Of a stretch of 64,000 nucleotides of DNA, positions 30,665 to 47,108 are shown one piece after another. A program made the position numbers and the translations under genes. The notes under the pieces were generated by a model. The model saw only the letters and a list, made by a program, of their open reading frames with translations. It had not been told where the DNA came from and searched no databases. The stretch is from assembly GCF_058153355.1 (NCBI RefSeq), contig NZ_CM177019.1; one strand, given 5' to 3'. Every line of letters begins with the position of its first letter. Position 1 is the first letter of the stretch.

Positions 30665-30689
30665 TTATCAATCTCCACTCAATTCCTTT

Positions 30690-31214: not shown

Positions 31215-31225
31215 ATAACATTATT

Positions 31226-31483: not shown

Positions 31484-31760
31484 CCGCAACAGCCACTTTA
31501 ATATCTTCCTGGGTTCTCTGTGACTCCAGTGCGATCTGCTGTTTTGCATGCTGGTTAGCCTCCAGAACTGTATTGACGATTTGCATTGATTGCAGGACGT
31601 TATTGGTAATGGCAGTTGCTGATTCAGCATTTTGTACAGCCTCATCAGCACGTTTCTTTTCGTACTGATATTTGCTGTAGTAGTAGTTGGCTGACCAGAT
31701 GAAAGAACCAATGGCAGTAACGAAAAAAGCAGCGATAATCAGCTTATAACTCAACTTCAT
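31368..31760 (-). CDS. i-spanin Rz
   Basis: 130 aa; N-terminal transmembrane segment plus coiled coil; follows the endolysin gene. Confidence 0.7.
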   Translation of the reverse strand: MKLSYKLIIAAFFVTAIGSFIWSANYYYSKYQYEKKRADEAVQNAESATAITNNVLQSMQIVNTVLEANQHAKQQIALESQRTQEDIKVAVADDDCAARPVPAAAADRLRKYANSLREHSEDTTTSQLDF

Positions 31761-32220
31761 TTACCACCCCACCAGCCTCTTTAAATCGGGCAATCAGGTC
31801 ACCGATTTTATGTTCATACTGACCGTAACCTGCGCCCGGCAGTGAAGCCCAGATATTGCTGCAACGATCGATAGCCTGACGGATATCACCGCGATCAATC
31901 ATCGGTAAAGCGCCACGCTCTTTAATCTGCTGCAATGCCACTGCGTCCTGGCTTTTGGGGGAGAAGTCTTTCAGACCAAGCTGTTTACGGTAAGCATCCC
32001 ACCATCGGGAAAGAATCTGGTAGCGTCCAGCAGCCGTTGATTTAAGTTTTGGGTTTAGCGTGACAAGTTTGCGAGGGTGGTCGGAGTAATCAGTGAAGAG
32101 TTCACCACCGACAATAACGTCATAACCGTGGTTACATGTCGGTTGCCGTCCATTATCCGTTCCTTCTGACCATGCCACCATATCGAGGAAAGCTTTACGC
32201 TGGGAATTTAGTACCTGCAT
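31744..32220 (-). CDS. endolysin (lambda R-type lytic transglycosylase)
   Basis: 158 aa; near-identical over long stretches to lambda R as remembered (NQRKAFLDM.AWSEGTDNGRQ...NHGYDVIVGGELFTDYSDHPRKLVTLNPKLKST). Confidence 0.9.
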   Translation of the reverse strand: MQVLNSQRKAFLDMVAWSEGTDNGRQPTCNHGYDVIVGGELFTDYSDHPRKLVTLNPKLKSTAAGRYQILSRWWDAYRKQLGLKDFSPKSQDAVALQQIKERGALPMIDRGDIRQAIDRCSNIWASLPGAGYGQYEHKIGDLIARFKEAGGVVNEVEL

Positions 32221-32223
32221 AAA

Positions 32224-32559
32224 TTACTCCTTAGAGCCACCAAACTTGTTACCGATTACTCTCATTGCAGCCCCACGAATTGCATCGACCCCAATCAGCC
32301 CCACCCCACCACCAATGGCAACAGAAAGCGATTTAGGCCATCCGACATACTCAAGCGCGGATGCAAAGGTCAGCGTCAGAGCGCCACAGAGCAAAATTTC
32401 GAGTGTTTTTCGTTTCCAGCCGCCACCACCACCAAAATAGGCAATACGCAAACCAGCCATAACAATCGACATAATCACTGCGCCCAGCGGCGTATCTCCA
32501 CGCCACCAGCTCTGGAACAACTCCAGCCAGTCCGGCCAGGTATTTGGGTTATGAGGCAT
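32224..32559 (-). CDS. putative holin
   Basis: 111 aa with 2-3 hydrophobic helices and a charged C-terminus, immediately upstream of the endolysin. Confidence 0.6.
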   Translation of the reverse strand: MPHNPNTWPDWLELFQSWWRGDTPLGAVIMSIVMAGLRIAYFGGGGGWKRKTLEILLCGALTLTFASALEYVGWPKSLSVAIGGGVGLIGVDAIRGAAMRVIGNKFGGSKE

Positions 32560-32636
32560 TTAGTCATCTCTCACCTCGCGATTATTTGCGGGTGCTGTGT
32601 TGGAAATAAAAAGGCCAAGCAACGTGGCCACCAGAA

Positions 32637-33689
32637 TTATTTCCCCACCAGTTCACTTACCTCTTTCACCGTCTGGTTAAACCGATCTGACTCAAACTCA
32701 ACACCTAACGCCCGACGCCCCAGCGCCATTGCTGCTTTTATTGTGGAACCGGATCCCATAAAGAAATCAGCAACCAGATCGCCTGGTCGACTACTGGCAT
32801 TGATTATTTGCCGGAGCATATCCGCAGGCTTCTCACACGGATGTTTACCCGGGTAGAACTGAACGGGTTTATGCGTCCAGACGTCGGTATAAGGCACGGA
32901 AACTGATACGGAGAAATAGCGCCGGAGAGTTTTAAACTCATCCAGCAATTCAGAATATTTGCGATTCAGTGAATCATAAGATGCCACCAGCTGGTGGTGT
33001 GTGTGTTCCAGTTGTTGTTCCTGAAACTTCTCTGCCGCTATACGGGAAAACAGTGCCTGCAACTTTCGGTAGTCAGCCTCGTTCGGCAACTGCCACTGAC
33101 TGGCACCAAACCAGTGGGAAACCATATTTTTCTTACCAGTGGCTTCGGCAATCTGTTTTGCCGTTATCCCCAGTTCGGCACGAGCATCCCTGAAATACGA
33201 AATCAGCGGTGCCATTATGTGCTGTTTGAGTTCCCTTTCTTTTGCCGCATAGCCGTCACTTTTGCCGCGATATGGCCCCTGGTAATGTTCAGCAAACAGA
33301 ACGCGCTCTGTTGCGGGAAAATATGCGCGCAGACTTTCTTTATTACACCCGTTCCATCGTCCGGACGGCTTCGCCCAGATGATATGGTTAAGCACGTTGA
33401 AACGTTCACGCATCATGATCTCGATATCAGATGCGAGGCGATGTCCACAGAACAGGTAAAGGCTTCCGGCAGGTTTCAACACCCGCCAGAACTGGGCCAG
33501 ACAATGGTCCAGCCACTTAAGGTAATCTTCGTCCCCTTTCCACTGATTGTCCCAGCCGTTGGGTTTCACCTTGAAGTACGGCGGATCGGTAACAATCAGG
33601 TCAATGGAATCATCAGGCAGGGACTGAATAAAATACAGGCAATCAGCGTTGATTAAATCAGCACTGTTTATTTTTACAGTATTTTTCAT
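32637..33689 (-). CDS. DNA methyltransferase (N6-adenine or N4-cytosine, beta-class)
   Basis: 350 aa; motif IV TDPPYF near the N-terminus and AdoMet motif FFMGSGST near the C-terminus. Confidence 0.8.
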   Translation of the reverse strand: MKNTVKINSADLINADCLYFIQSLPDDSIDLIVTDPPYFKVKPNGWDNQWKGDEDYLKWLDHCLAQFWRVLKPAGSLYLFCGHRLASDIEIMMRERFNVLNHIIWAKPSGRWNGCNKESLRAYFPATERVLFAEHYQGPYRGKSDGYAAKERELKQHIMAPLISYFRDARAELGITAKQIAEATGKKNMVSHWFGASQWQLPNEADYRKLQALFSRIAAEKFQEQQLEHTHHQLVASYDSLNRKYSELLDEFKTLRRYFSVSVSVPYTDVWTHKPVQFYPGKHPCEKPADMLRQIINASSRPGDLVADFFMGSGSTIKAAMALGRRALGVEFESDRFNQTVKEVSELVGK

Positions 33690-33838
33690 GGATCAGTAAG
33701 CGTAACTCTGGTAGGCTCACTCTGCTTTTGCGCTAAAGCAGTGGGCCGAGGTTCGCTTGTGACCAGTAAGCATGAGCGAATGGCTGGCAGGTGCTACCAA
33801 CACCCACCAGCCGCCCATTTTCACAAATTAAAAGCCCT

Positions 33839-34057
33839 TCATTGCTGAAGGCGTCTGTAACAGCCGAACTGGTAATCTGCCAGCCCCGCCATAACCAGCT
33901 GGGTCAGTATTAACTGACAGCGTTCGCGTGAAAGGTATGTGTTTTGTGCTATCTCCCCGACTGTTGCCGGTTCGACGCTTAATTCATTAAAAACAACTTT
34001 CGCCGTTTCTGTCATATCTAGCTGTTTTAGCATGTCTTTTTTCCTTCTGGTTAACAT
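33839..34057 (-). CDS. small hypothetical protein, possible winged-helix DNA-binding fold
   Basis: 72-aa ORF first downstream of the late promoter/terminator; SD present; no family recognised. Confidence 0.45.
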   Translation of the reverse strand: MLTRRKKDMLKQLDMTETAKVVFNELSVEPATVGEIAQNTYLSRERCQLILTQLVMAGLADYQFGCYRRLQQ

Positions 34058-34156
34058 GACATACCAATAACTCTTGTCTAAAAAGCCAGCAAGATAAAAA
34101 GTCAGTATTCACGACCACCAGCGTGTTTACCGTACTGCCAACATCAAGGCACAAAA

Positions 34157-34180
34157 AAACCCGCTCAGCGGCGGGTTCTT
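34157..34180 (-). terminator. intrinsic terminator (tR'-like) downstream of the late promoter
   Basis: Minus-strand CCCGCCGCTGAGCGGG hairpin followed by a T7 run. Confidence 0.65.
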
Positions 34181-34223
34181 AAATCTTATCAACGGTAGAC
34201 ATACAAAGCCCATCGTTGGGACA

Positions 34224-34252
34224 ATCTTATCCATATTTTTTGAAAAATGCAA
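34224..34252 (-). promoter_or_regulatory. late promoter (PR'-like): -35 TTGCAT, 17-bp spacer, -10 TAAGAT
   Basis: Sigma70-like elements on the minus strand immediately downstream of the Q-like gene and ~45-60 nt upstream of the terminator. Confidence 0.5.
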
Positions 34253-34283
34253 GAATTATGTCGTCATCTTCGGCGAAAATCAT

Positions 34284-35036
34284 TTATCTCGTCACTTTTC
34301 TTAATTGCGTCTCAGCATATGCTTCTTCCTGCCAGCACTTTGTCACCAGTTTATCAATGACATCTGCATATCCTTTGTACCACTGATAATCCGTCAAATC
34401 TGGTACCAGTTTCTGTACATGACACCGCGCCAGTGTCGTTGGTAAACGGCTAAACCGGTTTCCATTGCAACGTCCACAAATCTTATAAACAGGCCTGCCA
34501 TGAAGCCGGGTCCTTTTTTCATCCAGGACAATACCTTTACCCTTACACCCTCTGCACGCTGTGCTGACTTCTCCCTTACCATGGCAATGCTGACACAGTT
34601 CCTTTACCCACTCTTCCTTGATAACAGATTCCCCGCTTCTGGAGTGTTTCACCACTTCGCGCAATACATTATGAAATCCAGTACCAGCACAATGCTCACA
34701 GCAAGCCTTACTTGCCGCAGACCTGGAATAATCAGCAAAGGCAAAATTCACAAGGTAAGGAATGATCTGTAGCCGGGTTTCTTCACTCAATTTGTTCAAT
34801 GTCGGGTTATCCAGTGCCATCGCGTAATTGAGCAGACCTTCAATCGCAAACTGAGGATCCTGAATACCAAGTTTTGCCAGGAATAAGGCAAACCCAAGCG
34901 GTGCTTTCGACTGCACCATCCCCTGCGCAGCCATTACATCCGTAATTGTTAAACCACCAGAGCCTGTCGCCGGTGCGTCATCGCTCAATATTGGAGATTT
35001 TGGGGAGTAATATTTCGGTAAGGCTTCAAGGTTCAT
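34284..35036 (-). CDS. antitermination protein Q-like (Cys-rich zinc-binding)
   Basis: 250 aa with CEHCAGTG...CQHCHGKGE...CRGCKGKG...CGRCNG motifs; located just upstream of the late promoter/terminator pair. Confidence 0.65.
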   Translation of the reverse strand: MNLEALPKYYSPKSPILSDDAPATGSGGLTITDVMAAQGMVQSKAPLGFALFLAKLGIQDPQFAIEGLLNYAMALDNPTLNKLSEETRLQIIPYLVNFAFADYSRSAASKACCEHCAGTGFHNVLREVVKHSRSGESVIKEEWVKELCQHCHGKGEVSTACRGCKGKGIVLDEKRTRLHGRPVYKICGRCNGNRFSRLPTTLARCHVQKLVPDLTDYQWYKGYADVIDKLVTKCWQEEAYAETQLRKVTR

Positions 35037-35049
35037 GCTCGTTCTCCAC

Positions 35050-36045
35050 TTACGCCAGTACGCCTATTGCCAGCGCACGATCGATAAAACGAAATATCAG
35101 CTCCAGCTGGGAGCCATACTTCTCTTCAAATGCCGCGGTATCCGCATGCAACTCGTCGTGATGCTTTCTGCACAAAGGCAACACAAAGAGGTCATGCGCT
35201 TTTGTACCCATTCCGCCCTGACCGTGGCCTATCAGGTGGTGGGGATCATCAGCAGGCTTTCCACAACATGCACACGGCTGTGTCTTAACCCAGCGCGTGT
35301 ACTTTTCGTTAACCCAGCGGCGACGTTTTGGGCGTAACATAAAAGACTCCGGCGACTCCGGATCCACTTTCAGCGCCAGCACCTTTTTCACTTTATCCTG
35401 GATGATGCTGGTGGCAGGAACCGAAGGAACAAGGTCACTTTCCCGGGTGACAGACGGCACAACAGGCTTCGGTAATCTCAGTGCCTTACGGGCTGCACTT
35501 TCCGGCAAGGCACCCGCCAGGTCATTACGAACCAGCCACCAGCACAGTTCCGGCATTGTCACAACGTGACTATCATCAAAACCGAGATCCCGACGCACGA
35601 CAGACAACACCCAGCGGGCACAGTTATCCGTTGCCATTGATTCCAGCCGTTCCGTGAACTGATCGCGCAGCTGGTTATCGCAGTGCCAGCACAGACGGAT
35701 TGCGCCCGGCGCGTGTCGCATTGTGGTCATGTTCTCGCTGTGCCAGTCGGAATGAGGCCACTGACAGCCATTTTCACGAAGTAACCAGCTTTCAAGACAT
35801 TCCACGCCACCAGCACGACGGATCACTGCCTCATTGCGGAACACGCCCCGAACGGCAGGATCATCCGCCAGCGGTTGTGATACCGCCGGAACGGCACCAC
35901 TGGCGAAAGATGAATAACGTTCCGGCTCAGGCTCCAGCAGGACACGCCCCTGCATAAACAGGGGCATCAGCTCTGAACCTGGTCTGAACAATACGATCCC
36001 CATACGCGGGGCAATTTCAGGGGTCAGTAATGCTCTCACGGTCAC
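35050..36045 (-). CDS. DUF968-like prophage protein (HNH-like C-terminus)
   Basis: 331 aa; C-terminal CACCGKPADDPHHLIGHGQGGMGTKAHDLFVLPLCRKHHDELH. Confidence 0.6.
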   Translation of the reverse strand: MTVRALLTPEIAPRMGIVLFRPGSELMPLFMQGRVLLEPEPERYSSFASGAVPAVSQPLADDPAVRGVFRNEAVIRRAGGVECLESWLLRENGCQWPHSDWHSENMTTMRHAPGAIRLCWHCDNQLRDQFTERLESMATDNCARWVLSVVRRDLGFDDSHVVTMPELCWWLVRNDLAGALPESAARKALRLPKPVVPSVTRESDLVPSVPATSIIQDKVKKVLALKVDPESPESFMLRPKRRRWVNEKYTRWVKTQPCACCGKPADDPHHLIGHGQGGMGTKAHDLFVLPLCRKHHDELHADTAAFEEKYGSQLELIFRFIDRALAIGVLA

Positions 36046-36046
36046 C

Positions 36047-36874
36047 TCAATGAACGGTATCGAGCAGCTTTAACAGCTCAGGGAATCGGGATTCGAAGAA
36101 ATGCGGCTGCGTCTCGCGCGGATTTGCGGGACTGGTGATGTTCTTGCCGAACATGCAGCCTTTCGCTGTCAGCGACCAGAATTTTTTGATGTTGTTAATC
36201 GCGGTACGGCTGTATCGTTCGCGTTGTTCGACGATCCCCAGCTTCGCCATCTGGTGATATGCCTGATTAGCCGTCAGGCGGATACCATACTGTTTCAGCA
36301 GTGCACTCAGCGACAGCGTAGGGCGGCTTGAACCATCTGGCGCATCAGCAGGGGCATCAATGGCATAGATCGGCATAAGTTCAGGAAGACCAGCTACCTT
36401 TGATAATTTCTGGTATGCACCAAGTTTCGAGGAGTTTGACAGATTTAGAGTCTTTGCTGCTGATTCAAGCAGAATGACCCCGGATTTGATTTTGTCGGAT
36501 ATGGTTTCTTCTGGTGATGAATTATGAAGCGCATCAAAAGTACGTATCACTTTTAAGCTGAATGCCGGGCTGATCCACATTGCATATGCATAGACCAGCT
36601 CTTTACAGACATACGTCCCACCATTGCGCCCCTGAATGGTGATGACAGGAATACTACGGGAATCTCCCGTAGTTTCTTCTTCCAATAATTCCACAAGAGC
36701 CTTCGTTTCAGGACGACGCATAAACTCGTGAACTTCCAGCGAACGGGAGGAGCGATTCTCACCAGCAGCAAGAAGAGCAGCTTTCTGAAGGTCGTTAAGA
36801 CAGTAGTTAGATTCGAAGTACTGGCGCACAGAAACGCCATCAATTACAAGCAACTGATTCATTGGTTTCTCCAC
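36047..36874 (-). CDS. KilA-N domain protein (putative antirepressor)
   Basis: 275 aa; N-terminal region with ELVYAYAMWISPAFSLKVIRTF resembles KilA-N/Bro-N; preceded by a consensus SOS box. Confidence 0.6.
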   Translation of the reverse strand: MEKPMNQLLVIDGVSVRQYFESNYCLNDLQKAALLAAGENRSSRSLEVHEFMRRPETKALVELLEEETTGDSRSIPVITIQGRNGGTYVCKELVYAYAMWISPAFSLKVIRTFDALHNSSPEETISDKIKSGVILLESAAKTLNLSNSSKLGAYQKLSKVAGLPELMPIYAIDAPADAPDGSSRPTLSLSALLKQYGIRLTANQAYHQMAKLGIVEQRERYSRTAINNIKKFWSLTAKGCMFGKNITSPANPRETQPHFFESRFPELLKLLDTVH

Positions 36875-36959
36875 AAATTTTTATCCACGAGCGGGACTGC
36901 ACTCCCTTTTCGTTGATGCAGGATGCACTTACTGCGATTTTTAATAGTTATCAAGGGCA

Positions 36960-36979
36960 TACTGTTCATAAATACAGTA
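36960..36979. promoter_or_regulatory. LexA (SOS) box TACTGTTCATAAATACAGTA
   Basis: 20-bp palindrome matching TACTGT-N8-ACAGTA at both ends; ~85 bp upstream of the KilA-N gene start, in the RusA/KilA-N intergenic region. Confidence 0.6.
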
Positions 36980-37024
36980 TCTTTAACGAGGTAATACCCA
37001 AATTTAGGGTGTTGCTCAATTCCG

Positions 37025-37420
37025 TTACCGAGTTGCTAATTTGCAACTCGCTTTTTCGTACTTACTGATAGTGATCTCGACCTTCCCTTCCGGGATAACC
37101 GGTCCCCACTCCACCAGCATTCTTTTCACCTGACTGTCGTCTTCCCACACACCCGCGTGGGTCAGAGCGTCAAACAGCGCCTTGTTATAGTTGTCCAGAT
37201 CGCGGATCCGGTTATCCGGAGGAAACAACACGATCTCCACTGAAGCAGGTGCCGACGTTGGTTTCGGCAGACGACGTAACTGCTCAACTATTGCTGCGCA
37301 CGCCGCGCTCTGGAATTTGCGCCCCGCCGCGCTTATCAGGCTTTTACCAGCAAACGCCCCTTTGTTAGGGTGTCGCCAGTACGTATTCACGCTGGGCGGG
37401 AAAGGCAGGATCAGTTTCAT
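37025..37420 (-). CDS. Holliday junction resolvase RusA-like
   Basis: 131 aa; conserved RusA pattern (PPSVNTYWRH..., DLDNYNKALFDALTHAGVWEDDSQV). Confidence 0.8.
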   Translation of the reverse strand: MKLILPFPPSVNTYWRHPNKGAFAGKSLISAAGRKFQSAACAAIVEQLRRLPKPTSAPASVEIVLFPPDNRIRDLDNYNKALFDALTHAGVWEDDSQVKRMLVEWGPVIPEGKVEITISKYEKASCKLATR

Positions 37421-37743
37421 ACTTTCAGGCCTCTCTCATGTAACCAGTGGGTTGCACGCAGCCTTGCGTTTTCCTCACCGGCAAGCAGTGAGCGGATAAT
37501 CCCGACAGCCTCGCTGTCGTCGTCCTTCACCGCGGTATGAAGCGTTATCCCCCGGGCCACGCCACGCTTTATCGTGATGACGCCTTTTTTCTCCAGTGCG
37601 CGAAGATGCTCCACCGCTGCATTCACTGAACGGTATCCCAGCATGGTTGCCACCTCCTGATTGGTTGGCGGGAAGCCACGTTCTTTCTGGTAAGAAATCA
37701 GCATATCCAGCACCTGCTGCTGGCATTGAGTTAATGTCGTCAT
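37417..37743 (-). CDS. LexA N-terminal DNA-binding-domain homologue (no peptidase domain)
   Basis: 108 aa; LTQCQQQVLDMLISYQKERGFPPTNQEVATMLGYRSVNAAVEHLRALEKKGVITIKRGVARGITL aligns with the E. coli LexA N-domain at roughly half identity; there is no S24 peptidase region. Confidence 0.7.
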   Translation of the reverse strand: MTTLTQCQQQVLDMLISYQKERGFPPTNQEVATMLGYRSVNAAVEHLRALEKKGVITIKRGVARGITLHTAVKDDDSEAVGIIRSLLAGEENARLRATHWLHERGLKV

Positions 37744-38393
37744 GCCGCCATCTCCCTGACCAGTTTTTCCGCCTGCTGGCGAACCTGCGCCAGAAAGGCC
37801 TCACCACATGCCTCAAGTTCATCGCGCCCGATGTAGCTGATTGCCGGTCCCTTCCAGGTCTTGTCGAAAACAACAATAGCACCAGCGAAGAAAGCGCCTG
37901 TCGGCACCTGCTTCTCGTCCTTCGGTATAAACCAGGCAGGCAGTTCAAAACCAATACGCCCGCGAATAAAAGCAATATGATCTGCATCTTCCGGCCACCA
38001 CACTTCGCTGGTGGCAGCTTTGATCAGGAAAACATAGCGCCCGCCTTTATCACGCATGGCACTGGCATGTTTCATGATGTAACGCATGCCGGTGATGTAT
38101 TGCCCCTCATGCTGACTGGCGCGGCTGTATGGGGGATTACCAAAGGCAGCACCTTTAAGCTCCGCAAGACGTTCTGACCAGTCATGCGCCAGCGCGTTGT
38201 CTTCCGCCGTGTAATACGCGGCACATTTGGCGTTATCACCGTCAGTGAACAGATCCAGAACAAACGGACCAAACAAGGTGTTAATTCCCCAGAAAATGTT
38301 GTCCGGCGTGCGCCACTGATCGCCCACTTCCTTCAGTTCATGGGCTGGTTTGTTCCGCAGTTCTACCAGCGCCTGGCAATATTTATTACTCAT
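37740..38393 (-). CDS. phage N6-adenine DNA methyltransferase (Dam-like)
   Basis: 217 aa with FGNPPYS catalytic motif; typical lambdoid nin-region methylase. Confidence 0.8.
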   Translation of the reverse strand: MSNKYCQALVELRNKPAHELKEVGDQWRTPDNIFWGINTLFGPFVLDLFTDGDNAKCAAYYTAEDNALAHDWSERLAELKGAAFGNPPYSRASQHEGQYITGMRYIMKHASAMRDKGGRYVFLIKAATSEVWWPEDADHIAFIRGRIGFELPAWFIPKDEKQVPTGAFFAGAIVVFDKTWKGPAISYIGRDELEACGEAFLAQVRQQAEKLVREMAA

Positions 38394-38487
38394 TAAGCCC
38401 CCACGTAAAAAGCATCCGCAATGTCTCCGGAAGTACAGCCCGGATGGGCTTCAATGAATTTCTGAACGTCATTTAACAGACTCATGA

Positions 38488-39480
38488 TCACCCCCTGAAT
38501 CCTGCCGGGATCTGGCTGTAGTCCACGTTGTCGTAACTGGCTTTGAAGTACGGGTCTTCACGTTTTTCTGTGTGCGTGCTGACGGACGGCGATAAGCGCA
38601 GGGAAAGCTCATCCCATTTTTCCCGCAACTTCGACGGGCTGAGCACGTTACGGCACCAGAACGGATCGCGGCTGACGCGGCTGTACATCTCGCAGATTTG
38701 TTTGTGAGTACGACCATCCTGCACACACATCAGGCGAATTTCGTTTGCCCATGCTGTCCAGTTCGGTTCTTTGGGACGAACCACCTCGCCGTCACATTCG
38801 GCGGCCTGCTCGTACAGGGCGATGATTTTTTTCCAGAGCCACTGTGCGCAGGTCAAATCATCCTGCGTTCCCCACTGGCGCTTTTTAGGGCTGAATACAA
38901 CCGCATCAGGATGGCGAGTTAAAAACTCCTGTTCAGCCGTTTGCGTGTCCGGTTGCGAAGCGTCCGGACGAGAAGAGGTTTTATTCTCTGTAGTAATCTC
39001 TGTTGTATTCTCTGTAAGATCATTGGGCCATTTTGACCCGATGACAGCGTGTCGTTTTGAACCAATGGATCGTGTCATTTTGCGCCCATCCATCAGGTCA
39101 CTTTGACCCGATGGAGAAGTGCATTTTGACCTGATGGATTCGTTCACTTTGACCTCTTCTAAAAGCTCACTTTCATAGTTGATCGTGTAGAAGTTGGTCA
39201 TGTCACGCTTCGATTTATTGAGTTGCTCGCGACGCAAAACCCCAAGTGATTTCAAGCTTGCAAATGTGCGTTTCAGAGTGGACTCTGACCAGAACGGAAA
39301 CTGCTCCAGCCACTGTTCTGTCGTGTTATAAACCCAGCGAATTCCGCCATGCTCTGTGCCTGAATTCGTTTCATTCAGCCAGTAATGAAGCTGCTGCAAC
39401 ACAATTGCCTCATTCAGACCAATACGGCATGCAAGATCACGATTTATCACAATGGGCTGGGATGTCATTAACAGGCTCAT
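38488..39480 (-). CDS. replication initiator/replisome organiser with DnaT-like C-terminus; origin iterons embedded
   Basis: 330 aa; internal iterons; C-terminus ...NVDYSQIPAGFRG mirrors the host DnaT C-terminus ...[10 protein letters not shown] present in this window. Confidence 0.7.
   Translation of the reverse strand: MSLLMTSQPIVINRDLACRIGLNEAIVLQQLHYWLNETNSGTEHGGIRWVYNTTEQWLEQFPFWSESTLKRTFASLKSLGVLRREQLNKSKRDMTNFYTINYESELLEEVKVNESIRSKCTSPSGQSDLMDGRKMTRSIGSKRHAVIGSKWPNDLTENTTEITTENKTSSRPDASQPDTQTAEQEFLTRHPDAVVFSPKKRQWGTQDDLTCAQWLWKKIIALYEQAAECDGEVVRPKEPNWTAWANEIRLMCVQDGRTHKQICEMYSRVSRDPFWCRNVLSPSKLREKWDELSLRLSPSVSTHTEKREDPYFKASYDNVDYSQIPAGFRG
39028..39157. repeat. phage replication origin iterons: six direct repeats, core TTTGACC(C/T)GATGG, ~23.5 bp period
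   Basis: Repeat cores start near 39031, 39055, 39078, 39101, 39125 and 39148; located inside the initiator gene as lambda ori is inside O. Confidence 0.7.
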
Positions 39481-39489
39481 GACCGACCT

Positions 39490-39828
39490 CTATTTCCCTG
39501 AATTTACGACGAAACTGTTCGAGCGGACTGAAGCATTCATGTTCATAGCCTTCACGGAGGTAGATAACCCGTTGTGTTTCCGGCTCCCAACGAATGACTC
39601 TGACGGGCACTCCGTAGTGATCTTTGAACCAGCGGTTAACTTGTCGCAAAGGACTGTCTCCTTCTGCCGGTTGAAATCACCCACAGCCCACTCTGCAAAG
39701 CTGTGGGTTACAATTTCCCTGTCACCTGGTACATTCACTGCATAGCAATACTCCACCTTCGCTTTTCCACCCGGTACAGGAAGCGCAATCAGTTGCGAGC
39801 GACGGTAGTGTGTTGTTAAACTGTTCAT
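39490..39828 (-). CDS. hypothetical early protein
   Basis: 112 aa; ATG overlaps the stop of the upstream gene (ATGA coupling) and the stop lies 9 bp before the initiator start. Confidence 0.5.
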
Positions 39829-40409
39829 GCGTTAGTTTCTCCACAGACACAAAACGCCACGACGCCCGGAGCTGCACACTCGCGGGCGTCACTCTTTTCT
39901 GGAGCGCAAAAGATTTTGTAGACCAGTGCTGCATGCTCCTGGAGCTTCGAAATTGACAGATACAACTCATCATTAATTACTGTCTGCTCGTGTGGCTCCA
40001 CTACCCCATCTTCGATTGCCGAACGAATCTGCTTTGAGTAACTCCCGATCTGTTCGATGACTTCCAGCAGACGCTGGTTTATATCGGCGTTCTCTACTTC
40101 CTCAATTTCAGGAAGCGATACAAACACCCCACCAGCAGACTGTGCGACAGCATCCGCAATGTAGTGAGTGCCAGCCGCGCGCTGTAAAATCATTGCCCAT
40201 CCCAGCGGGAAAATCTGATCGCCATCTGCACGAAGGCGGTTGAATAAAGCGTTCTCTGTTACATCCAGCCACTCAGCAGCTTCAGCGTAACCTCCCGGCA
40301 ACGCCGCGATAGTTTTTCTGACAGCTTTCACGTACCACTCAGGCTGTTTTTCTACTTTCCAGTGATGCTTACCCACGGCTATCTCCTTAAAACTGTGGTT
40401 ACTTTCCAT
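39825..40409 (-). CDS. early regulatory protein (YdaT/CII-like position)
   Basis: 194 aa directly downstream of the Cro-like gene; resembles Rac-type YdaT as far as memory allows. Confidence 0.5.
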
Positions 40410-40647
40410 CAGATAAGTCTTTAATCTTTTGAAAAATATCTGGACGTAATTTTTCTTTTGATACGCCAGTGGTCATTTCAATGAATATCGAGAGCTTTGC
40501 AGGGGGACGCTTTTCTCTGTTCAACCAGTTCCAGACATGTTGTTGCTTTACTAAACGACCACTGCTGGCTGTGAGCTTCCGAGCCAATTCTGATTGACCA
40601 CCAGCCAGAGCGATTGCCTCTGATAAGGCTAATTGCTCAGGTGTCAT
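40399..40647 (-). CDS. Cro-like HTH regulator (YdaS-like)
   Basis: 82 aa, divergent from the CI-like repressor across an operator region. Confidence 0.7.
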   Translation of the reverse strand: MTPEQLALSEAIALAGGQSELARKLTASSGRLVKQQHVWNWLNREKRPPAKLSIFIEMTTGVSKEKLRPDIFQKIKDLSDGK

Positions 40648-40650
40648 AGC

Positions 40651-40784
40651 TTTCTCCTATCTGTAAGTAGTAAAGTTGTTGATAACTTCGATTATACAAC
40701 TACAACAACTTTTATTACAACTTTTAGATGTTGGAAAGCTAAAACATAAAGTTGTAACCTCAATAAAAACGAGGGGGATATGTT
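40651..40784. promoter_or_regulatory. OR-like operator/promoter region with repeated AAGTTGT / ACAACTT half-sites
   Basis: Divergent intergenic region between cro-like and cI-like genes with at least four copies of the heptamer in both orientations; the same motif recurs at 41650..41700. Confidence 0.55.
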
Positions 40785-41471
40785 GTGAAAACATTGGCAG
40801 AAAGACTAAAAAGCGAAAGAGAAAAAGCAGGAATGAGTCAGGCGCAACTAGCTGAAAAAATTGGACTTTCACAACAATCCGTAGCGAAAATCGAGAATGG
40901 AGAAACTCAACAGCCTCGGAAAATTAAAGAGATTGCTAAAGTGTTAGGGGTTTCTCAAAAGTGGTTGCAATTGGGCATTGAGGATAACGCGTCTTTCCCA
41001 AACCTTGTTGTAAAGGAGGCTGAAAGTACAACATTAGATCCTGACATTTTTGCAAACATTCCTGTCCTAGATGTCGAATTATCAGCGGGTAATGGATGTT
41101 TGGCTGAAATAGTTGAATCAACTGTAGACTGGTTCCCGCTAAGAAGGATTGATTTAAGGAAAGCTGGTGTATGTGTCTCCAATGCAAAGATCGTAAAAAT
41201 TTGGGGTAATAGTTTACTACCTGTACTTAACAATGGAGATTTTGTTGCTGTTGATGTTTCCCAAACAGTTCCTATTCGTGATGGGGATCTTTATGCTATA
41301 CGTGATGGCGTATTACTTAGAGTTAAAATATTGATCAATTTACCTGACGGTGGTCTGATTCTAAGAAGTTTCAATAAAGATGAGTATCCAGATGAAATAC
41401 TCACCTTCGAAGATAGGCGTTCCAGAATTCACGTTATAGGTAGAGTATTCTGGTCATCGCGCACTTGGTAA
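40785..41471 (+). CDS. CI-like repressor (HTH_XRE N-domain + S24 LexA-type peptidase C-domain)
   Basis: 228 aa; GMSQAQLAEKIGLSQQSVAKIENG HTH; C-terminal domain with Ser (GNSLLP) and Lys (RVKIL) typical of autocleaving repressors; GTG start with SD GAGGGGG. Confidence 0.85.
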   Translation: MKTLAERLKSEREKAGMSQAQLAEKIGLSQQSVAKIENGETQQPRKIKEIAKVLGVSQKWLQLGIEDNASFPNLVVKEAESTTLDPDIFANIPVLDVELSAGNGCLAEIVESTVDWFPLRRIDLRKAGVCVSNAKIVKIWGNSLLPVLNNGDFVAVDVSQTVPIRDGDLYAIRDGVLLRVKILINLPDGGLILRSFNKDEYPDEILTFEDRRSRIHVIGRVFWSSRTW

Positions 41472-41649
41472 TGCATCAAAAACATTCCTTCAGAAATTTA
41501 GTTACCATTATTACCCGCCTTTTCAATCTTCCTCCCGTGATTTGAGAGTTTCCAATCACGGAAGGAAAGTGTCCATTGTGTAATTAAAAGCGCATCGTCC
41601 ATACAACCTCCTTTTTTGATAACCCTAGCCCCCATTTAACATCCGTCAA

Positions 41650-41700
41650 AACCACATAAAGTTGTTGACAACAACCAAAACAACAACTAGATTACAACTT
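41650..41700. promoter_or_regulatory. OL-like operator region (AAGTTGTTGACAACAACC palindrome and further ACAACTT copies)
   Basis: Same heptamer family as the OR region, located downstream of cI and upstream of the plus-strand early-left genes. Confidence 0.5.
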
Positions 41701-41803
41701 AAAGATGTTGCAGTAACGAACAGGCAGGACGCCCACGAAGTAGCCGCCGGTGGCGTATGAATGACCGGATGATTCGTTAAATACTATGTGTAAGAGAGCG
41801 CAA

Positions 41804-42006
41804 ATGAACCGTTATTTCACATGCTCGTTTTGTGGCGCAAACGAGCTGCAGGCAAAAAAATCATCGCCAAAGGCGGAAAAGATGAAGTTGCTATCTGCTC
41901 TGAGTGCGTAGTCTTGTGTGTTGGGGCATTAATCAATATCAGCACAACTATTCAGTTCACACCAAATGAGAATGCGCCTTTAGATGCGCGGAAATCTGGA
42001 GGTTAA
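41804..42006 (+). pseudogene. ClpX-N-type C4 zinc-ribbon protein, reading frame split at an A7 tract (41854..41860)
   Basis: Frame A: MNRYFTCSFCGANELQAKK...; frame B continues ...IIAKGGKDEVAICSECVVLCVGALI. The joined sequence has CxxC-N18-CxxC; a -1 shift at A_AAA_AAA connects the frames. Confidence 0.5.
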
Positions 42007-42098
42007 AGAACAAAATGAAAGTCCAGATTTTAAACAATAACTGTGAAGTCGTTTGGGCGTAAAACATGACCGCGCGTAGACCAAGGGAGGAAAAAGTG

Positions 42099-42272
42099 GG
42101 AATAGTTAGAAATCAAGCAGATATATTGAAAATCAGCTCTGAATTGCTTGGAGTTTTGAAAAGTGAGCTCACCGCACATGGCATCGAGCCCACTGACGAA
42201 AATTTAAGTTGGGTTTTGTCGATTATTCAACAATCACTCAAGCCCAGCCTCAGCAAACTTTTTATCGAGTAG
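42099..42272 (+). CDS. small hypothetical early protein
   Basis: GTG start with strong SD AAGGGAGG; 57 aa; 3' end overlaps a convergent minus-strand ORF. Confidence 0.4.
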   Translation, partial: GIVRNQADILKISSELLGVLKSELTAHGIEPTDENLSWVLSIIQQSLKPSLSKLFIE

Positions 42273-42425
42273 TGCTTCGAACTTATCGTAAAGCTTGCTT
42301 ATGTCGTCTATCGGGTTTTCTGACGTACTGTAATTTTTATCTGATGTCATGGCAGCAGTCTGATATGCAGTGTGAGTCTTAACCGATAGTTGGAATAAAT
42401 AAAGAATTTTTTCTTCTTTGGTCAT
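42234..42425 (-). CDS. small hypothetical acidic protein, convergent and 3'-overlapping
   Basis: 63 aa (MTKEEKILYLFQLSVKTHTAYQ...), SD AAGGAA, low GC. Confidence 0.45.
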   Translation of the reverse strand: MTKEEKILYLFQLSVKTHTAYQTAAMTSDKNYSTSENPIDDISKLYDKFEALLDKKFAEAGLE

Positions 42426-42863
42426 AACTATTTCCTTCTTGGCTATATGAAAACACCAAGATACCACCGAGCCTGAAGTGGTGAAAAGACAGGCACATAA
42501 CAGCTAAGTATTTTCAACCAGAGAGAATCCTTAGCGTTGTGGTGAATGCGGCTCAGCGCACGCGGGTTAAGGTTGAGGTTGACAGTCGACCTTCTGTGGA
42601 TACCCACCCGCCTGGTGTGCAACCTTCGCCAGGCACCGGGAGGCACCCGGCACCACAACTTTATGCTGTGTGTAGTCCTCGCGGTACCAGTTTGTACACT
42701 TGCTTCCGGCTGGTACCGCTCTTTTTACAAAACAGAGAAGGGCATCACCGGACGACGGGCTCATAACCCAATCCATCCGGGCGGCTGCCACCGCAGGTGT
42801 TCTTCTCTGTTTTGTGGAGAAACCAACCGACCTTGCAGGGTCGATATGATGAGGAGCAGCAAA

Positions 42864-43226
42864 ATGGCTAGCGAACGCAGTACTGATGTGCAGGCATTTA
42901 TCGGGGAGCTGGACGGCGGCGTATTTGAAACCAAAATCGGCGCAGTTCTCAGTGAAGTCGCTTCCGGTGTGATGAACACGAAAACCAAAGGTAAGGTCTC
43001 GCTCAACCTGGAAATCGAACCATTTGATGAGAACCGTGTGAAAATCAAACACAAACTCTCATATGTTCGCCCGACTAACCGCGGGAAAATTTCCGAAGAA
43101 GACACCACCGAAACACCGATGTATGTCAATCGCGGTGGTCGCCTGACTATTCTGCAGGAAGACCAGGGACAATTACTGACTCTTGCCGGTGAACCTGACG
43201 GAAAACTACGCGCAGCAGGTCATTAA
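42864..43226 (+). CDS. hypothetical early protein (YfdP-like size and position)
   Basis: ATG at 42864 with SD GAGGAG; 120 aa MASERSTDVQAFIGELDGG...; the upstream part of the track ORF is judged non-coding. Confidence 0.6.
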   Translation: MASERSTDVQAFIGELDGGVFETKIGAVLSEVASGVMNTKTKGKVSLNLEIEPFDENRVKIKHKLSYVRPTNRGKISEEDTTETPMYVNRGGRLTILQEDQGQLLTLAGEPDGKLRAAGH

Positions 43227-43291
43227 TATCGTTCTTAATTAACTGATTATTTATCTCATCACTGAATATCTTTATATAGTGAGGACTTATT

Positions 43292-44116
43292 ATGTCTCAG
43301 AACTTAGACGCAACCGCAATTAATCAAATCCATGCCCTTATTTCTGCTCAGGGTGTTAATGAAATTATTAGTAAGATTGGTGCCGATGCTGTGGCATTGC
43401 CTGAGAATTTCCGCATTCATGATCTGGAAAAATTTAATTTAAATCGCTTCCGTTTCCGTGGTGCGCTTTCCACTGCCAGCATCGATGACTTTACCCGTTA
43501 TTCTAAAGATCTTGCAGATGAAGGCACCCGCTGCTTTATCGATGCCGATAATATGCGTGCCGTCAGTGTGCTTAACCTGGGTACTATTGATGAACCAGGT
43601 CACGCAGATAACACCGCCACTCTCAAACTGAAAAAGACAGCACCGTTCTCTGCTCTGTTGTCTGTTAATGGCGAGCGTAACTCCCAAAAGTCACTGGCAG
43701 AATGGATTGAAGACTGGGCCGACTACCTTGTGGGCTTTGATGCTAATGGTGACGCCATTCAGGCAACCAAAGCGGCTGCGGCGATCCGTAAAATCACAAT
43801 TGAAGCGAACCAGACCGCTGATTTTGAAGACAATGACTTCAGCGGCAAACGCTCCCTGATGGAGTCTGTCGAAGCGAAGACCAAAGACATTATGCCAGTG
43901 GCATTTGAATTTAAATGCGTTCCGTTTGAAGGCCTGAAAGAACGTCCGTTTAAATTACGCCTCAGCATTATCACTGGCGATCGTCCTGTACTGGTTCTGC
44001 GCATTATTCAGCTGGAAGCGGTGCAGGAAGAAATGGCTAACGAATTTCGTGATCTGCTTGTTGAGAAATTTAAAGACAGCAAAGTAGAAACCTTTATTGG
44101 TACTTTCACCGCCTGA
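43292..44116 (+). CDS. YfdQ-family protein (DUF2303-like)
   Basis: 274 aa, the same length as CPS-53 YfdQ; part of a YfdP/Q/R/S-like gene set. Confidence 0.6.
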
Positions 44117-44243
44117 TTTCATTACTGCAAATGCCCCTGCGGGGGCATTTATGGAAACATAATTTACTCAATAATCGCCGGATGGTGAGGGCTTCCTTTT
44201 ACCAGAATTCAGCGCGGTGCAGCGCATATACGTGGAGAACAAA

Positions 44244-44780
44244 ATGTCATTTATTAAAACTTTTTCCGGGAAGCATTTTTATTATGACAAGATAAATAAA
44301 GACGACATCGTTATTAACGATATCGCGGTTTCCCTTTCAAATATCTGTCGCTTTGCAGGGCATCTTTCACACTTCTACAGCGTCGCCCAACATGCGGTGC
44401 TTTGCAGCCAGCTGGTACCGCAGGAATTTGCTTTTGAAGCGTTAATGCATGATGCAACAGAAGCATATTGCCAGGACATCCCCGCACCACTGAAACGACT
44501 TCTTCCTGACTATAAACGGATGGAAGAAAAAATAGACGCCGCAATCCGTGAGAAATACGGGTTACCCCCAGTTGTGAGTACGCCCGTGAAATATGCCGAT
44601 CTCATCATGCTGGCAACCGAACGCCGCGATCTCGGGCTTGATGATGGCTCTTTCTGGCCTGTACTGGAAGGCATCCCGGCAACAGAGATGTTCAACGTGA
44701 TTCCACTGGCACCGGGTCATGCCTACGGGATGTTTATGGAACGTTTTAACGATTTATCGGAGTTACGCAAATGCGCATGA
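44244..44780 (+). CDS. HD-domain 5'-deoxynucleotidase (YfdR-like)
   Basis: ORF 44217..44780; start MSFIKTFSGKHFYYD gives 178 aa; HD-like residues (HAVLCSQ...MHDATEAYCQD). Confidence 0.7.
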   Translation: MSFIKTFSGKHFYYDKINKDDIVINDIAVSLSNICRFAGHLSHFYSVAQHAVLCSQLVPQEFAFEALMHDATEAYCQDIPAPLKRLLPDYKRMEEKIDAAIREKYGLPPVVSTPVKYADLIMLATERRDLGLDDGSFWPVLEGIPATEMFNVIPLAPGHAYGMFMERFNDLSELRKCA

Positions 44781-45133
44781 ATGTTTTCGAAATGGAAGGG
44801 TTTCTTCGCGGGAAATGTGTACCGCGAGATCTGAAAGTGAACGAAACAAATGCTGAGTACCTGGTACGTAAATTCGACGCGCTTGAAGCTAAATGTGCGG
44901 CACTGGAAAACAAAATAATACCAGTGTCAGCTGAACTGCCACCAGCAAATGAAAGTGTTCTGTTATTTGATGCTAATGGAGAAGGCTGGCTGATTGGCTG
45001 GCGTTCTCTCTGGTACACCTGGGGACAAAAAGAAACCGGAGAATGGCAGTGGACATTTCAGGTCGGGGACCTTGAAAACGTCAATATCACTCACTGGGCA
45101 GTAATGCCAAAAGCACCGGAGGCTGGAGCATAA
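44771..45133 (+). CDS. hypothetical protein (YfdS-like)
   Basis: 120 aa; overlaps the upstream stop. Confidence 0.5.
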   Translation: MRMNVFEMEGFLRGKCVPRDLKVNETNAEYLVRKFDALEAKCAALENKIIPVSAELPPANESVLLFDANGEGWLIGWRSLWYTWGQKETGEWQWTFQVGDLENVNITHWAVMPKAPEAGA

Positions 45134-45912
45134 TGACCACATTTACCAATAAAGAACTGATTAAAGAAATCAAAGAACGAATCAGCAGCCTAGAGGTTCG
45201 AGACGATATTGAGCGCCGTGCTTATGAAATTGCTCTGGCATCGCTAGAAGAGGAGCCGGTGGCATGGCTGCATTCAGAAAATGGCTTAGGTATTCCGGCA
45301 ATAACGAGGTGTAAAAACATTGCTGACAGTTGGTTATCAAAGGGCTGGTATGTTCAGCCGCTATATATAGCCAAGCCAGTGCCGGTAGTGCCAGATGCTC
45401 GTCCGTCTTTAAATAATGGCATAGTCGGTTTTGATGAAGGCTGGAACGCCTGCCGCGCCGCCATGCTTCATGGTGCCGAACCTGTAAACCAAACTTACAA
45501 GTCACCACACACGCAGTTTGAACAAGTTGCTGACCTCTACGAAATGCAATTTGATGACGGTCGCACTTGTGCCTTTCACACTGATGCGCAAAAGGCTGCG
45601 CAATGGCTTCAGGTGTGCGACGGAAACAGGGTTCAGGAATACGTTAAGCTGGAACGGCTGCAGAACGCGCTGTCTGGCAACTCTCCGGTAAGTCCGGGTG
45701 GTTGGATAAGCTGTAGTGAGCGAATGCCGAATGATAAACAGTATGTTTGGTGTTGGGGGAAGTCTTACGGCTGGACTGAGTGCGATACCTTCGAAGGGTA
45801 TTATGATTGGTCGAGAAACAAATGGTGGGCAGTTACTGACAATGAGGAAGAACAGGCATCGAAAGTAACCCACTGGATGCCACTACCGGAGCCGCCGCAG
45901 GAGGTGAAGTAA
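45133..45912 (+). CDS. hypothetical protein with Trp-rich C-terminal domain (DUF551-like)
   Basis: 259 aa; C-terminus WISCSERMPNDKQYVWCWGKSYGWTECDTFEGYYDWSRNKWWAVTD. Confidence 0.5.
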   Translation: MTTFTNKELIKEIKERISSLEVRDDIERRAYEIALASLEEEPVAWLHSENGLGIPAITRCKNIADSWLSKGWYVQPLYIAKPVPVVPDARPSLNNGIVGFDEGWNACRAAMLHGAEPVNQTYKSPHTQFEQVADLYEMQFDDGRTCAFHTDAQKAAQWLQVCDGNRVQEYVKLERLQNALSGNSPVSPGGWISCSERMPNDKQYVWCWGKSYGWTECDTFEGYYDWSRNKWWAVTDNEEEQASKVTHWMPLPEPPQEVK

Positions 45913-46106
45913 TGAACAACTTAATGACAACTAAACAAGTCGCCGATTTCTGTGGTGTTTCAGTATCGACAGTTCTTCGCTGGAACAGCGTAAACAGGAG
46001 AACTGGTCAGAAATATAGGCCTGACTTTCCAGATCCTGATATTAAATCCTGCCCAAATAAATGGGCATCACACAAGATTTACAGATTTGCGGGAGTGATT
46101 GAGTAA
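45912..46106 (+). CDS. excisionase/AlpA-like HTH protein
   Basis: 64 aa; TTKQVADFCGVSVSTVLRW helix-turn-helix; located near the integrase. Confidence 0.6.
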   Translation: MNNLMTTKQVADFCGVSVSTVLRWNSVNRRTGQKYRPDFPDPDIKSCPNKWASHKIYRFAGVIE

Positions 46107-46388
46107 TATGTATTAGCTTAGATGTGAGCTGACACATCTATGCTTAGATGCCAAACCTAATCTGAGCGTCCACTCTTTACCAAGAGCGGACGTTACCAAT
46201 GACCATATGACATGAATCGATAAGATCAAAACATTATCACCAAGAAATGTCATACCATTGATACAAATAAAATTGATTACCCCCTTACTCTTGTTGAAAA
46301 GTTAGTCGTAGAGTACCTATCGCAATGTAATCAGCTTTAATCATCTTAAAATTACTCCTTAAAAATTAGCTTTTATATACTGAACAAA

Positions 46389-47108
46389 TTAAATCTCTGT
46401 TTCTTTTCCTGCTCGGCTCAACCAATACTCCATTGTTTGAGTATGAATCTTTTCAGCGTATATTTTATCAATTAATTTATCTTGTTTTTCTTTAATGACT
46501 TCACGCAGTGAATCATATAACATAAAAAAACGTTCATCATCTTCCTCATTATTACCGTAATTTATTTGATTGAGCTCTGAAAAAATATGATAGTACCTTT
46601 TCTTCTTGGTCCCCGGCAATATTAAAACCAAGCCACATTGATCATATTCGAATTCACCTTTATGGGCAGCAAAGTTATGTCTAACATTCATAATAGAATC
46701 ATGTAAATCTCTGTATTTTTCTGGCACATGCTTTCTCTGCAATGTGAATCGACGCCCTTTCGCCTCTGTAAAACACTTACCGTAAGTAACAACTTTTGAT
46801 ATAAATAAAGACTTTAATATTAGATTCTTTTCTAAATCCGGATAAATAAAGTGTTGTTCTTTATTAATGTTATTACAAATGTTTTTTATTATATTCTCCC
46901 AACCAATAACATTCCGAAGATCTTTATCAAGCAACTGTAAGGCCACATATTGTTCTACAAAGCGGCCTTTTAAAGGTATTCGTGGTAATATTACACCTTT
47001 CTGCTTATAAATTCTTTCTATCGTATTATCTGGATATTGGATCTTCCTTATTTCTATTCCGTCTTCTTCTGATACCCTTACTAATGGTTCATTTTTTAAC
47101 TTTGACAT
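46389..47108 (-). CDS. hypothetical protein, AT-rich cargo gene between xis and int
   Basis: 239 aa; markedly AT-rich relative to flanks; own intergenic regions on both sides; no family recognised. Confidence 0.6.
   Translation of the reverse strand: MSKLKNEPLVRVSEEDGIEIRKIQYPDNTIERIYKQKGVILPRIPLKGRFVEQYVALQLLDKDLRNVIGWENIIKNICNNINKEQHFIYPDLEKNLILKSLFISKVVTYGKCFTEAKGRRFTLQRKHVPEKYRDLHDSIMNVRHNFAAHKGEFEYDQCGLVLILPGTKKKRYYHIFSELNQINYGNNEEDDERFFMLYDSLREVIKEKQDKLIDKIYAEKIHTQTMEYWLSRAGKETEI

Follow-up and report, generated by a model that had tools for sequence, protein, structure and literature searches.

The C-terminal tail that a lambda-O-like prophage initiator shares with DnaT is associated with the type of helicase loader

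How does a lambdoid prophage that has a replication initiator but no helicase loader of its own bring the helicase to its origin? The question is raised by a stretch of 64,000 nt from contig NZ_CM177019.1 (NCBI RefSeq assembly GCF_058153355.1), which we analyze here and refer to as the window. It includes a lambdoid E. coli prophage whose early right operon carries a lambda-O-like initiator gene (38488..39480, minus strand, 330 aa), and the initiator ends in nearly the same residues as the host primosomal protein DnaT, which is encoded in the same window. The gene itself is an ordinary, widespread lambda-O-like initiator with an internal origin. As for the tail, its presence predicts the helicase-loader system, and it is strictly associated with loader type in the phage loci that we compare. 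The best explanation overall, and one that we consider moderately probable on comparative sequence data, is that of an internal-origin initiator whose DnaT-type tail docks DnaC or the DnaB-DnaC complex.

The initiator ends in ...NVDYSQIPAGFRG, where the core SQIPAGFRG is encoded at 38491..38517. Host dnaT (59203..59742, plus strand; NCBIfam NF002770, E 4e-105, 349 bits) ends in SQIPPGFRG (59713..59739). The two are identical at 8/9 positions, which bears out what a first-pass annotation of this DNA had noticed, a C-terminal peptide common to both proteins. The sole position where the phage core differs is that between IP and GF, which is free in DnaT orthologues, and in more than 100 of these the tail [KR]RD[VIL]N..SEPD..IPxGFRG is nearly invariant. 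Of 405 stop-to-stop open reading frames (ORFs) of at least 60 aa in the six frames of the window, only the initiator and DnaT have a C-terminal [IV]PxGF[RK]G. A BLASTP comparison of the initiator with DnaT aligns only the last 9 residues (E 0.008, for a single comparison). The annotation had proposed a search for a DnaT C-terminal domain, and had named an alignment confined to the last ~10 residues as the result that would speak against it. No such domain is found by Pfam, NCBIfam or hhalign, and for this protein the alignment does stop there, so that on this point the claim formally fails. We regard the ~10-residue limit as too strict, because the tails of sister initiators with this C-terminal domain (...RCVNHISEPDTEIPPGFRG and ...GGRDINRISRPDSSVPPGFRG) align with DnaT over 30-43 residues with pairwise E values of 6e-8 to 7e-8, and they bridge the short match of our initiator. 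Beyond the tail, we tried and rejected homology to DnaT at the domain level. The DnaT family models NF002770 and PF17948 do not match the initiator, the hhalign probability is 0.2% for tail-less alignments (the DnaT alignment being shallow, with sequences more than 75% identical), and neither Pfam nor sequence nor fold gives a match. The three-helix domain of DnaT 84-153, which binds single-stranded DNA (ssDNA), is absent from the initiator by hhalign, and the N-terminal oligomerisation domain and acidic PriB-binding linker of DnaT have no counterpart in it by BLASTP. The DnaT likeness of the initiator is confined to the tail.

We collected variants of the tail with two homologue searches. The one with the C-terminal 148 residues of the initiator returned only short, mostly partial proteins; the one with DnaT returned close orthologues only. 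Both served for tail variants, not for deep profiles. We found no paper on a PGFRG or 'DnaT-like' tail motif or on initiator-solo phages, older phage genome papers such as that of SfV being outside the scope of the search. Annotators already label such phage proteins 'Primosomal protein I', and Brezellec et al. 2017 (PMC5509034) had already reported an O-like protein with a DnaT_C motif.

Does the tail go with a particular way of loading the helicase? In the prophage, the statement of the annotation that there is no DnaC-like or P-like loader is upheld: host DnaC, lambda P and a P-like protein, used as tblastn queries, have no match at positions 1..58000 of the window, and PHROG scans of 18 proteins (17 early-region prophage ORFs and the ORF past the initiator in phage mEp460) find no loader or helicase. 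Some phages do carry a dnaC-like gene, whose product shares 48% identity with host DnaC along its entire length, and in 79/79 evaluable viral loci of this kind the upstream ORF ends in RD.N.IS.PD..[IV]PxGFRG. In lambda-P loci, O ends in LDLTNTDWIYGV[DE]L (the ...NTDWIYGVDL type) in 79/79, and the DnaT-like tail occurs in 0/79; it is absent as well from 5/5 further P-family cases. We also ran a DNA pattern for IPxGFRG followed by a stop, with the arginine as a CGN codon only, over viral contigs. It gives 120 sites, 103 of which end ORFs of at least 120 aa (mostly 250-370 aa) that form 10 clusters. In the 2.5 kb downstream of these 103 tail-bearing initiators, there is no DnaC-like or P-like gene in 93 cases, a dnaC-like gene in 1 and a P gene in 0, and 9 cases have too little sequence. 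Counted by architecture, a P-like loader accompanies 0/17 tail-bearing and 7/8 tail-less lineages (Fisher p 1.7e-5, for lineages that are not strictly independent).

Individual loci show the same association. The neighborhoods of mEp460 (mEp460_4F5), SfII, cdtI, MC05, SPN1S, P0247 and P0282 are loader-less too. DnaT-like tails are followed by dnaC-like genes in P0251 and L270, and so are the degenerate tails of P0260 (...IPEGAFDDDD) and of an Aeromonas phage (...PPGFN). W-type or WNTAEAWEN tails are followed by genes of the Phage_lambda_P family in P0253, P0302, P0259 and Brookers. In Rac-SA53, YdaU has a true DnaT-type domain with a lambda-like end (...LDCTDWRDD) and is paired with the P-like loader YdaV, which tells us that the DnaT domain and the DnaT tail are separable. 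P22 gp18, the partner of a DnaB-like helicase of the phage's own, is without a DnaT-like tail. Among Vibrio phage records, 94 match the lambda-O-type C-terminal domain, and the 7 matches listed end at residue 295-297, before the tail. In Vibrio phage K63 (L379:2117-3443), the one that we inspected, the initiator ends in ...SEGDPQFRF, with no DnaT-like tail, and a 143-aa P-like gene comes next. Vibrio hosts use DciA and not DnaC, and the K63 arrangement fits a host without DnaC.

Judging from its distribution among sequences, the tail is a portable, swappable module. The lambda-O-type domain carries alternative ends: DnaT-like (...DYSQIPAGFRG), lambda-like (...LDLTNTDWIYGVDL), the WNTAEAWEN type (...GHWNTAEAWENTL), and a long W..IWK type. 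The DnaT-like tail is also found after a DnaD-C-like domain, in cdtI orf46 and a Klebsiella ST11 prophage; after a Phg_2220_C-like domain, in gp40 of Klebsiella phage MC05; and after a true DnaT-type domain, in SPN1S gp46 (...RDVNAVPEPDSEIPPGFRG). It thus stands behind four types of C-terminal domain, in initiators of at least 7 PHROG families. On cdtI orf46 the last 24 residues of our initiator reappear unchanged while the other domains are different, and variants are present on MC05 gp40, SPN1S gp46 and others. The 6 cluster representatives that we scanned belong to PHROGs 428, 9773, 2509, 1032 and 345, all of them replication initiators, and to PHROG 2418, a family of unknown function whose representative gave a weak match to PHROG 391. 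Published, named phages with tail-bearing initiators include SfII, SfIV, SfV, mEp460, cdtI, and Stx2c and Stx2a phages. A fixed string of 7 residues at the extreme C-terminus of four unrelated domain types is typical of a docking peptide. We propose to define the class by an initiator ORF whose end is [IV]PxGFRG, followed by no more than about 4 residues, and by the lack of a lambda-P-type loader, so that directly downstream there is either a dnaC-like gene or else no loader exists; the 330-aa initiator has both features. Separate from this class are P0296 (L093:3001-4137), P0326, P0264 and P0266, in which the lambda-O-type domain has a 70-80-aa extension with a helix-like W..IWK..A end. In one W..IWK locus that we inspected, no loader follows (there are PerC, methylase and RusA genes instead), and this class would be another loader-less solution.

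The protein that bears the tail matches PHROG 391, 'replication initiation O-like', over its full length (residues 1-330 on profile positions 1-298 of 298, E 1.3e-101). With 98.5% identity, its counterpart in phage mEp460_4F5 carries the annotation 'Primosomal protein I'; the 'O protein family protein' of SfII is 67% identical to our initiator. Relatives of its C-terminal half occur in at least 598 viral contigs, the best 80 of them 98-100% identical, which makes the initiator a very common E. coli prophage gene. A Pfam scan gives only noise, with no match to Phage_rep_O (PF04492), RepA_N or a DnaD-type family; an NCBIfam scan gives 0 matches, and so does a PDB sequence search even at E 10. 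An AlphaFold2 (AF2) model built on a 94-sequence alignment has a mean predicted local distance difference test score (pLDDT) of 80, and it divides the protein into four parts. Residues 10-105 (39166..39453, minus strand) form a confident winged helix of the DnaD-NTD / RepA_N type, a predicted DNA-binding domain whose likeness in sequence is limited to PHROG and to tblastn matches with phage proteins named 'DnaD-like helicase loader'. Residues 112-169 (38974..39147, minus strand) are a disordered linker, with pLDDT below 50 at 112-162 and 166-169. Residues 180-297 (38590..38943, minus strand) form a confident helical domain with pLDDT above 90, which belongs to the family of the lambda O C-terminal domain: residues 183-294 are 38% identical to lambda O 171-270 (tblastn, E 3e-22), and phmmer also joins the family. 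The same domain is 49% identical to that of gp49 of Proteus phage Brookers. In tblastn, lambda O aligns with this C-terminal domain only, not with the N-domain. Residues 298-330 (PSVSTHTEKREDPYFKASYDNVDYSQIPAGFRG; 38491..38589, minus strand) are the tail, with pLDDT 52-71 and no secondary structure.

As with lambda O, the origin is internal to the initiator gene, and here both the annotation's initiator with its own internal origin and its six direct repeats stand. Six phased 13-bp cores of the TTTGACCCGATGG family occupy 39032..39160, starting at 39032, 39056, 39079, 39102, 39125 and 39148, with spacings of 24, 23, 23, 23 and 23 bp. The core has at most 2 mismatches in 4/6 copies; the remaining 2/6 have 5 mismatches yet are exactly phased. 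At up to 2 mismatches there are 4 sites on both strands of the whole window, all within the array and in one orientation. One further copy, at 39090..39102, is inverted and pairs with the fifth iteron in a perfect 13-nt inverted repeat (39088-39100 / 39127-39139). Directly downstream of the iterons, along the direction of transcription, comes an AT-rich stretch of 46 bp (38975..39020; GC 0.33, against 0.50 for the gene), which holds two copies of the 15-nt repeat GTTxTATTCTCTGTA and is presumed, by analogy with ori-lambda, to be the unwinding element. Iterons and AT-rich stretch together overlap the DNA that codes for the disordered linker of the AF2 map, which is the ori-lambda arrangement.

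Which part of the protein would read these repeats? Klebsiella phage MC05, with the same type of N-domain, has GGTCAAA iterons of period 23 and, after them, the TACAGAGAATACA repeats that are also present here. SfII, with another N-domain, has iterons of period 15 and different sequence in the same place in the gene, and cdtI orf46, with an HTH_36 N-domain, has 24/42-bp repeats of different sequence, again in the same place. We surveyed 78 loci in which the C-terminal domain and tail are at least 98% identical, taken from the best 80 near-identical prophages. At least 2 iteron cores are present in 16/16 loci with the N-domain type of the window, and no core in 62/62 loci with that of SfII. This covariation of N-domain type with iterons, in 78/78 loci, is the strongest evidence at hand that the repeats are read by the N-domain, and we infer that this domain binds the iterons.

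Put together, the elements suggest the following order of events. The N-terminal winged helix would bind the six phased iterons in the DNA that codes for its own disordered linker, and the adjacent AT-rich stretch would open, aided by transcription from the PR-like promoter if lambda is a guide. The last 10-25 residues, set behind the lambda-O-type helical domain, would act as a short docking peptide like the DnaT C-terminus and recruit a DnaC-type loader, most likely as the DnaB-DnaC complex. A prophage without its own loader would use host DnaC (59745..60482, plus strand), the proposed partner of the tail, encoded 20 kb away beside dnaT with a start 2 nt past the dnaT stop. Initiators that pair with lambda P carry another C-terminal peptide, ...NTDWIYGVDL or ...WNTAEAWEN. 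On the comparative evidence, then, the tail may physically bind DnaC or DnaB-DnaC, and the tail of DnaT may be DnaT's own contact to DnaC or DnaB-DnaC. The way in which DnaB/DnaC is recruited by DnaT 'remains unknown' according to PMC13377028 (2026), and PMC5778457 describes it likewise; neither a structure nor a partner is assigned to DnaT 154-179, and when these residues are removed the affinity for ssDNA is no more than halved (PMC4132743).

The host and phage versions of the tail also resemble each other at the level of DNA. The host junction ...GGATTCAGAGGGTAACGATGAAAAAC (59713..59750) and the phage junction ...GGATTCAGGGGGTAAGCATGCAAAAC (L087:4945-4990; L152, L153 and L156 around 2975-3015) both consist of GFRG, a stop, 2 nt and the ATG of dnaC. 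The matching junctions show that the tail-coding end and dnaC were once carried along together, and the sequences suggest that the 3' end of host dnaT with dnaC and the phage tail with dnaC are one inherited module of common origin. The tail is about 65-70% identical between phages and DnaT, as compared with the 48% of the adjoining DnaC proteins. Being at least as conserved as its neighbor, the tail is under constraint, which argues against a neutral leftover.

Several points weigh against a tail that docks DnaC or DnaB-DnaC. The similarity of this particular protein to DnaT spans just 9 residues. An AF2 model in which linkers connect host DnaC first to the lambda-O tail and then to our tail (15-row paired alignment, with DnaC monomeric and without DnaB) shows no confident docking: our tail reaches pLDDT 43-51 and the lambda-O control 23-28, both below any useful threshold. 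A cryo-electron microscopy (cryo-EM) paper proposes DnaT's N-terminal domain, not its tail, as the recruiter of DnaB/DnaC (PMC13377028). The counts of loci are phylogenetically non-independent, many of the loci being near-identical prophages, and the linkage of tail and dnaC could in part be joint inheritance of one DNA segment. In one alternative, the tail is what is left of an old capture of the dnaT 3' end with dnaC, without function where dnaC was later lost. The junction common to host and phage is what this alternative would predict, but the conservation just described is not, and across 10 clusters of loader-less initiators, moreover, the tail has stayed in frame and exactly at the C-terminus, and it has moved onto different domains without dnaC; of all the alternatives it seems to us the least probable, to the point of being hardly credible. 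Hardly better is a tail that binds or coats ssDNA, or helps cooperative oligomerisation at the opened origin, without docking any protein. Arg and Phe are present in the tail, and DnaT 84-153 binds dT30 about twofold more weakly and less cooperatively than DnaT 84-179 (PMC4132743). Yet the effect in DnaT is small, a fixed 7-residue C-terminal string on four unrelated domain types points to a docking peptide, and the link to loader type is left unexplained, so that we rate this very improbable.

The remaining alternatives keep a docking peptide and change its partner. If the tail grasped the helicase and not the loader, by binding a DnaB surface that is free in DnaB-DnaC and occupied or remodelled in DnaB-lambda P, it would also be expected to associate with DnaC-type as opposed to P-type systems. 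In lambda, however, the initiator touches the loader, not the helicase; P22 gp18, whose partner is a DnaB-like helicase and which has no loader, is without the tail; and phages with their own dnaC still use host DnaB, yet in them the tail stays coupled to dnaC. We find docking to DnaB unlikely for these reasons, although a direct DnaB-DnaT contact has been suggested by earlier authors (PMC4132743). Somewhat less likely still is docking to PriA or PriB, in which a restart primosome of the PriA type would form at the phage origin, with host PriA, PriB and DnaT required for loading DnaB. The host primosome was among the options of the first-pass annotation, and DnaT does contact PriA and PriB in the preprimosome (PMC13377028), but the cryo-EM contact to PriA is made by the folded C-terminal domain of DnaT and that to PriB by its acidic linker, and the initiator has neither. 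Nor would there be a reason why the tail is so strictly paired with dnaC genes of phages, and after recruitment of PriA the step of loading the helicase would still have to be solved. The annotation's idea of an initiator standing in for DnaT thus survives in part: it fits the comparative data, the tail being present with DnaC-type loaders and absent with lambda P, and of the two targets offered DnaC-DnaB is favored over the host primosome.

Docking to DnaC or DnaB-DnaC can be widened into a joint reading of host and phage, which we offer more tentatively, as possible rather than probable. The last ~20 residues of DnaT (...RDVNxxSEPDxxIPxGFRG) would bring DnaC or DnaB-DnaC to the restart primosome. 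The operon of dnaT and dnaC would descend from, or share a module with, a phage initiator-loader pair, and many temperate enterobacterial phages would have copied the peptide onto unrelated initiators, which could then load host DnaB by way of host DnaC without a loader of their own. The C-terminal peptide would be an exchangeable address label for the loader, with IPxGFRG for DnaC and NTDW or WNTAEAWEN for lambda P.

How does this system compare with the ones already described? With lambda O and ori-lambda it has in common the phased iterons followed by an AT-rich stretch inside the initiator gene, at the interdomain linker; the homologous C-terminal domain, with 38% identity over ~110 residues; and the location in the early right operon, behind cro and a gene like cII. 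The differences from lambda are an N-domain that is DnaD-NTD / RepA_N-like and not Phage_rep_O, the six 13-bp cores at 23 bp (lambda has four 19-bp iterons), the missing P gene, and the terminal peptide, ...DYSQIPAGFRG instead of ...LDLTNTDWIYGVDL. With E. coli DnaT (primosomal protein I) the initiator shares the SQIPxGFRG end, a likeness that extends up to RD.N.ISxPD..IPxGFRG in sister initiators, and where a phage dnaC-like gene is present it directly follows the tail-coding end of the initiator, just as dnaC follows dnaT. The N-terminal domain, the acidic linker and the three-helix C-terminal domain of DnaT are all missing from the initiator, and while DnaT is brought to forks by PriA and PriB, the initiator probably binds the sequence of its own origin. 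The initiators of Rac (YdaU), SPN1S (gp46), phiV10 and epsilon15 (PHROGs 1408, 2509 and 1032) and DopC (Brezellec et al. 2017) are likewise those of temperate enterobacterial phages, often annotated 'primosomal protein I' and some with the same tail, but they have a folded DnaT domain where the 330-aa initiator has the tail only. The RepA_N plasmid initiators (pSK41 / pTZ2162 RepA) and DnaD share the winged-helix type of the N-domain; there is no Pfam sequence match, their C-terminal domains are unrelated, and their hosts are Firmicutes. The host partner in the RepA_N and DnaD systems is primase or DnaD/DnaB-type proteins.

The comparison singles out one short, conserved peptide of DnaT as a candidate for the contact from DnaT to DnaC-DnaB. 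If the contact is real, it would explain how replication starts in many loader-less ('initiator-only') lambdoid phages, among them Shigella phages that convert the serotype and several of the phages with Shiga toxin. Where a Shiga-toxin phage has a non-lambdoid replication region, nothing is known of its replication proteins according to PMC8951638. Dependence on host factors would become predictable by a simple rule, from the last residues of the initiator. It also suggests that the peptide expressed alone could compete with DnaT and so block replication restart.

The surroundings of the initiator are those of a lambdoid early right operon. Reading leftwards, the order is a CI-like repressor gene (40785..41471, plus strand), a PR-like sigma-70 promoter upstream of cro (40691..40720, minus strand, matching 10/12 consensus positions), cro, a CII-like gene, two small ORFs and the initiator, and the early operon from this promoter passes through the initiator gene and the origin. 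After the initiator come a 30-aa remnant ORF, a Dam methylase, a LexA-like gene, RusA, a KilA-N-like regulator, an HNH protein and Q. The remnant ORF (MSLLNDVQKFIEAHPGCTSGDIADAFYVGA; 38393..38485, minus strand, PHROG 1324) begins 2 nt past the initiator stop, is no loader, and is an in-frame deletion of a PerC-like gene, which has 162 aa and stands behind the initiator in mEp460, SfII and other relatives; the 162-aa form is present in 66/78 related viral loci and the 30-aa form in 9/78. The Dam-type DNA methyltransferase (37740..38393, minus strand; PHROG 111, E 4e-90) is the next full gene past the initiator, at the position of lambda P. The prophage has a second DNA methyltransferase gene in its late-regulatory region (32637..33689, minus strand, 350 aa).

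A small winged-helix gene of the DUF1627 or PerC-like kind, of 130-240 aa, nearly always follows the replication genes in these modules (L089:2687-3370, L091:4453-5109 and L087:5733-6449 are examples), often with a 4-nt overlap with the initiator. We considered this gene as a hidden loader and find that unlikely; it follows dnaC-like genes as well, and no more than 30 aa of it are left in this prophage and in 9/78 relatives. A role in replication is possible for this gene, which is often translationally coupled to the initiator.

Upstream of the initiator, two same-strand ORFs in different frames (39437..39828, minus strand) share about 160 nt, and each matches a phage family over its whole length. 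The ORF of 112 aa (39490..39828) matches PHROG 1170 with E 1e-69 and is annotated in mEp460, where the 70-aa ORF is not; the ORF of 70 aa (39437..39649) is DUF4222-like and matches PHROG 1343 with E 5e-34, and in other relatives the DUF4222 gene directly precedes the initiator. Either the two genes truly overlap, or one of the families was built on a shadow ORF. As for the extent of the prophage, tail-fibre-like ORFs begin near 10 kb, so that it spans roughly 10-48.7 kb of the window. At the other end its integrase gene adjoins host yjjG (coordinates of this entry: 47395..48618, minus strand; 49004..49681, minus strand; 54318..54639, plus strand), and past the integrase come rimI, holD and rsmC, and then three tandem tRNA-Leu(CAG) genes.

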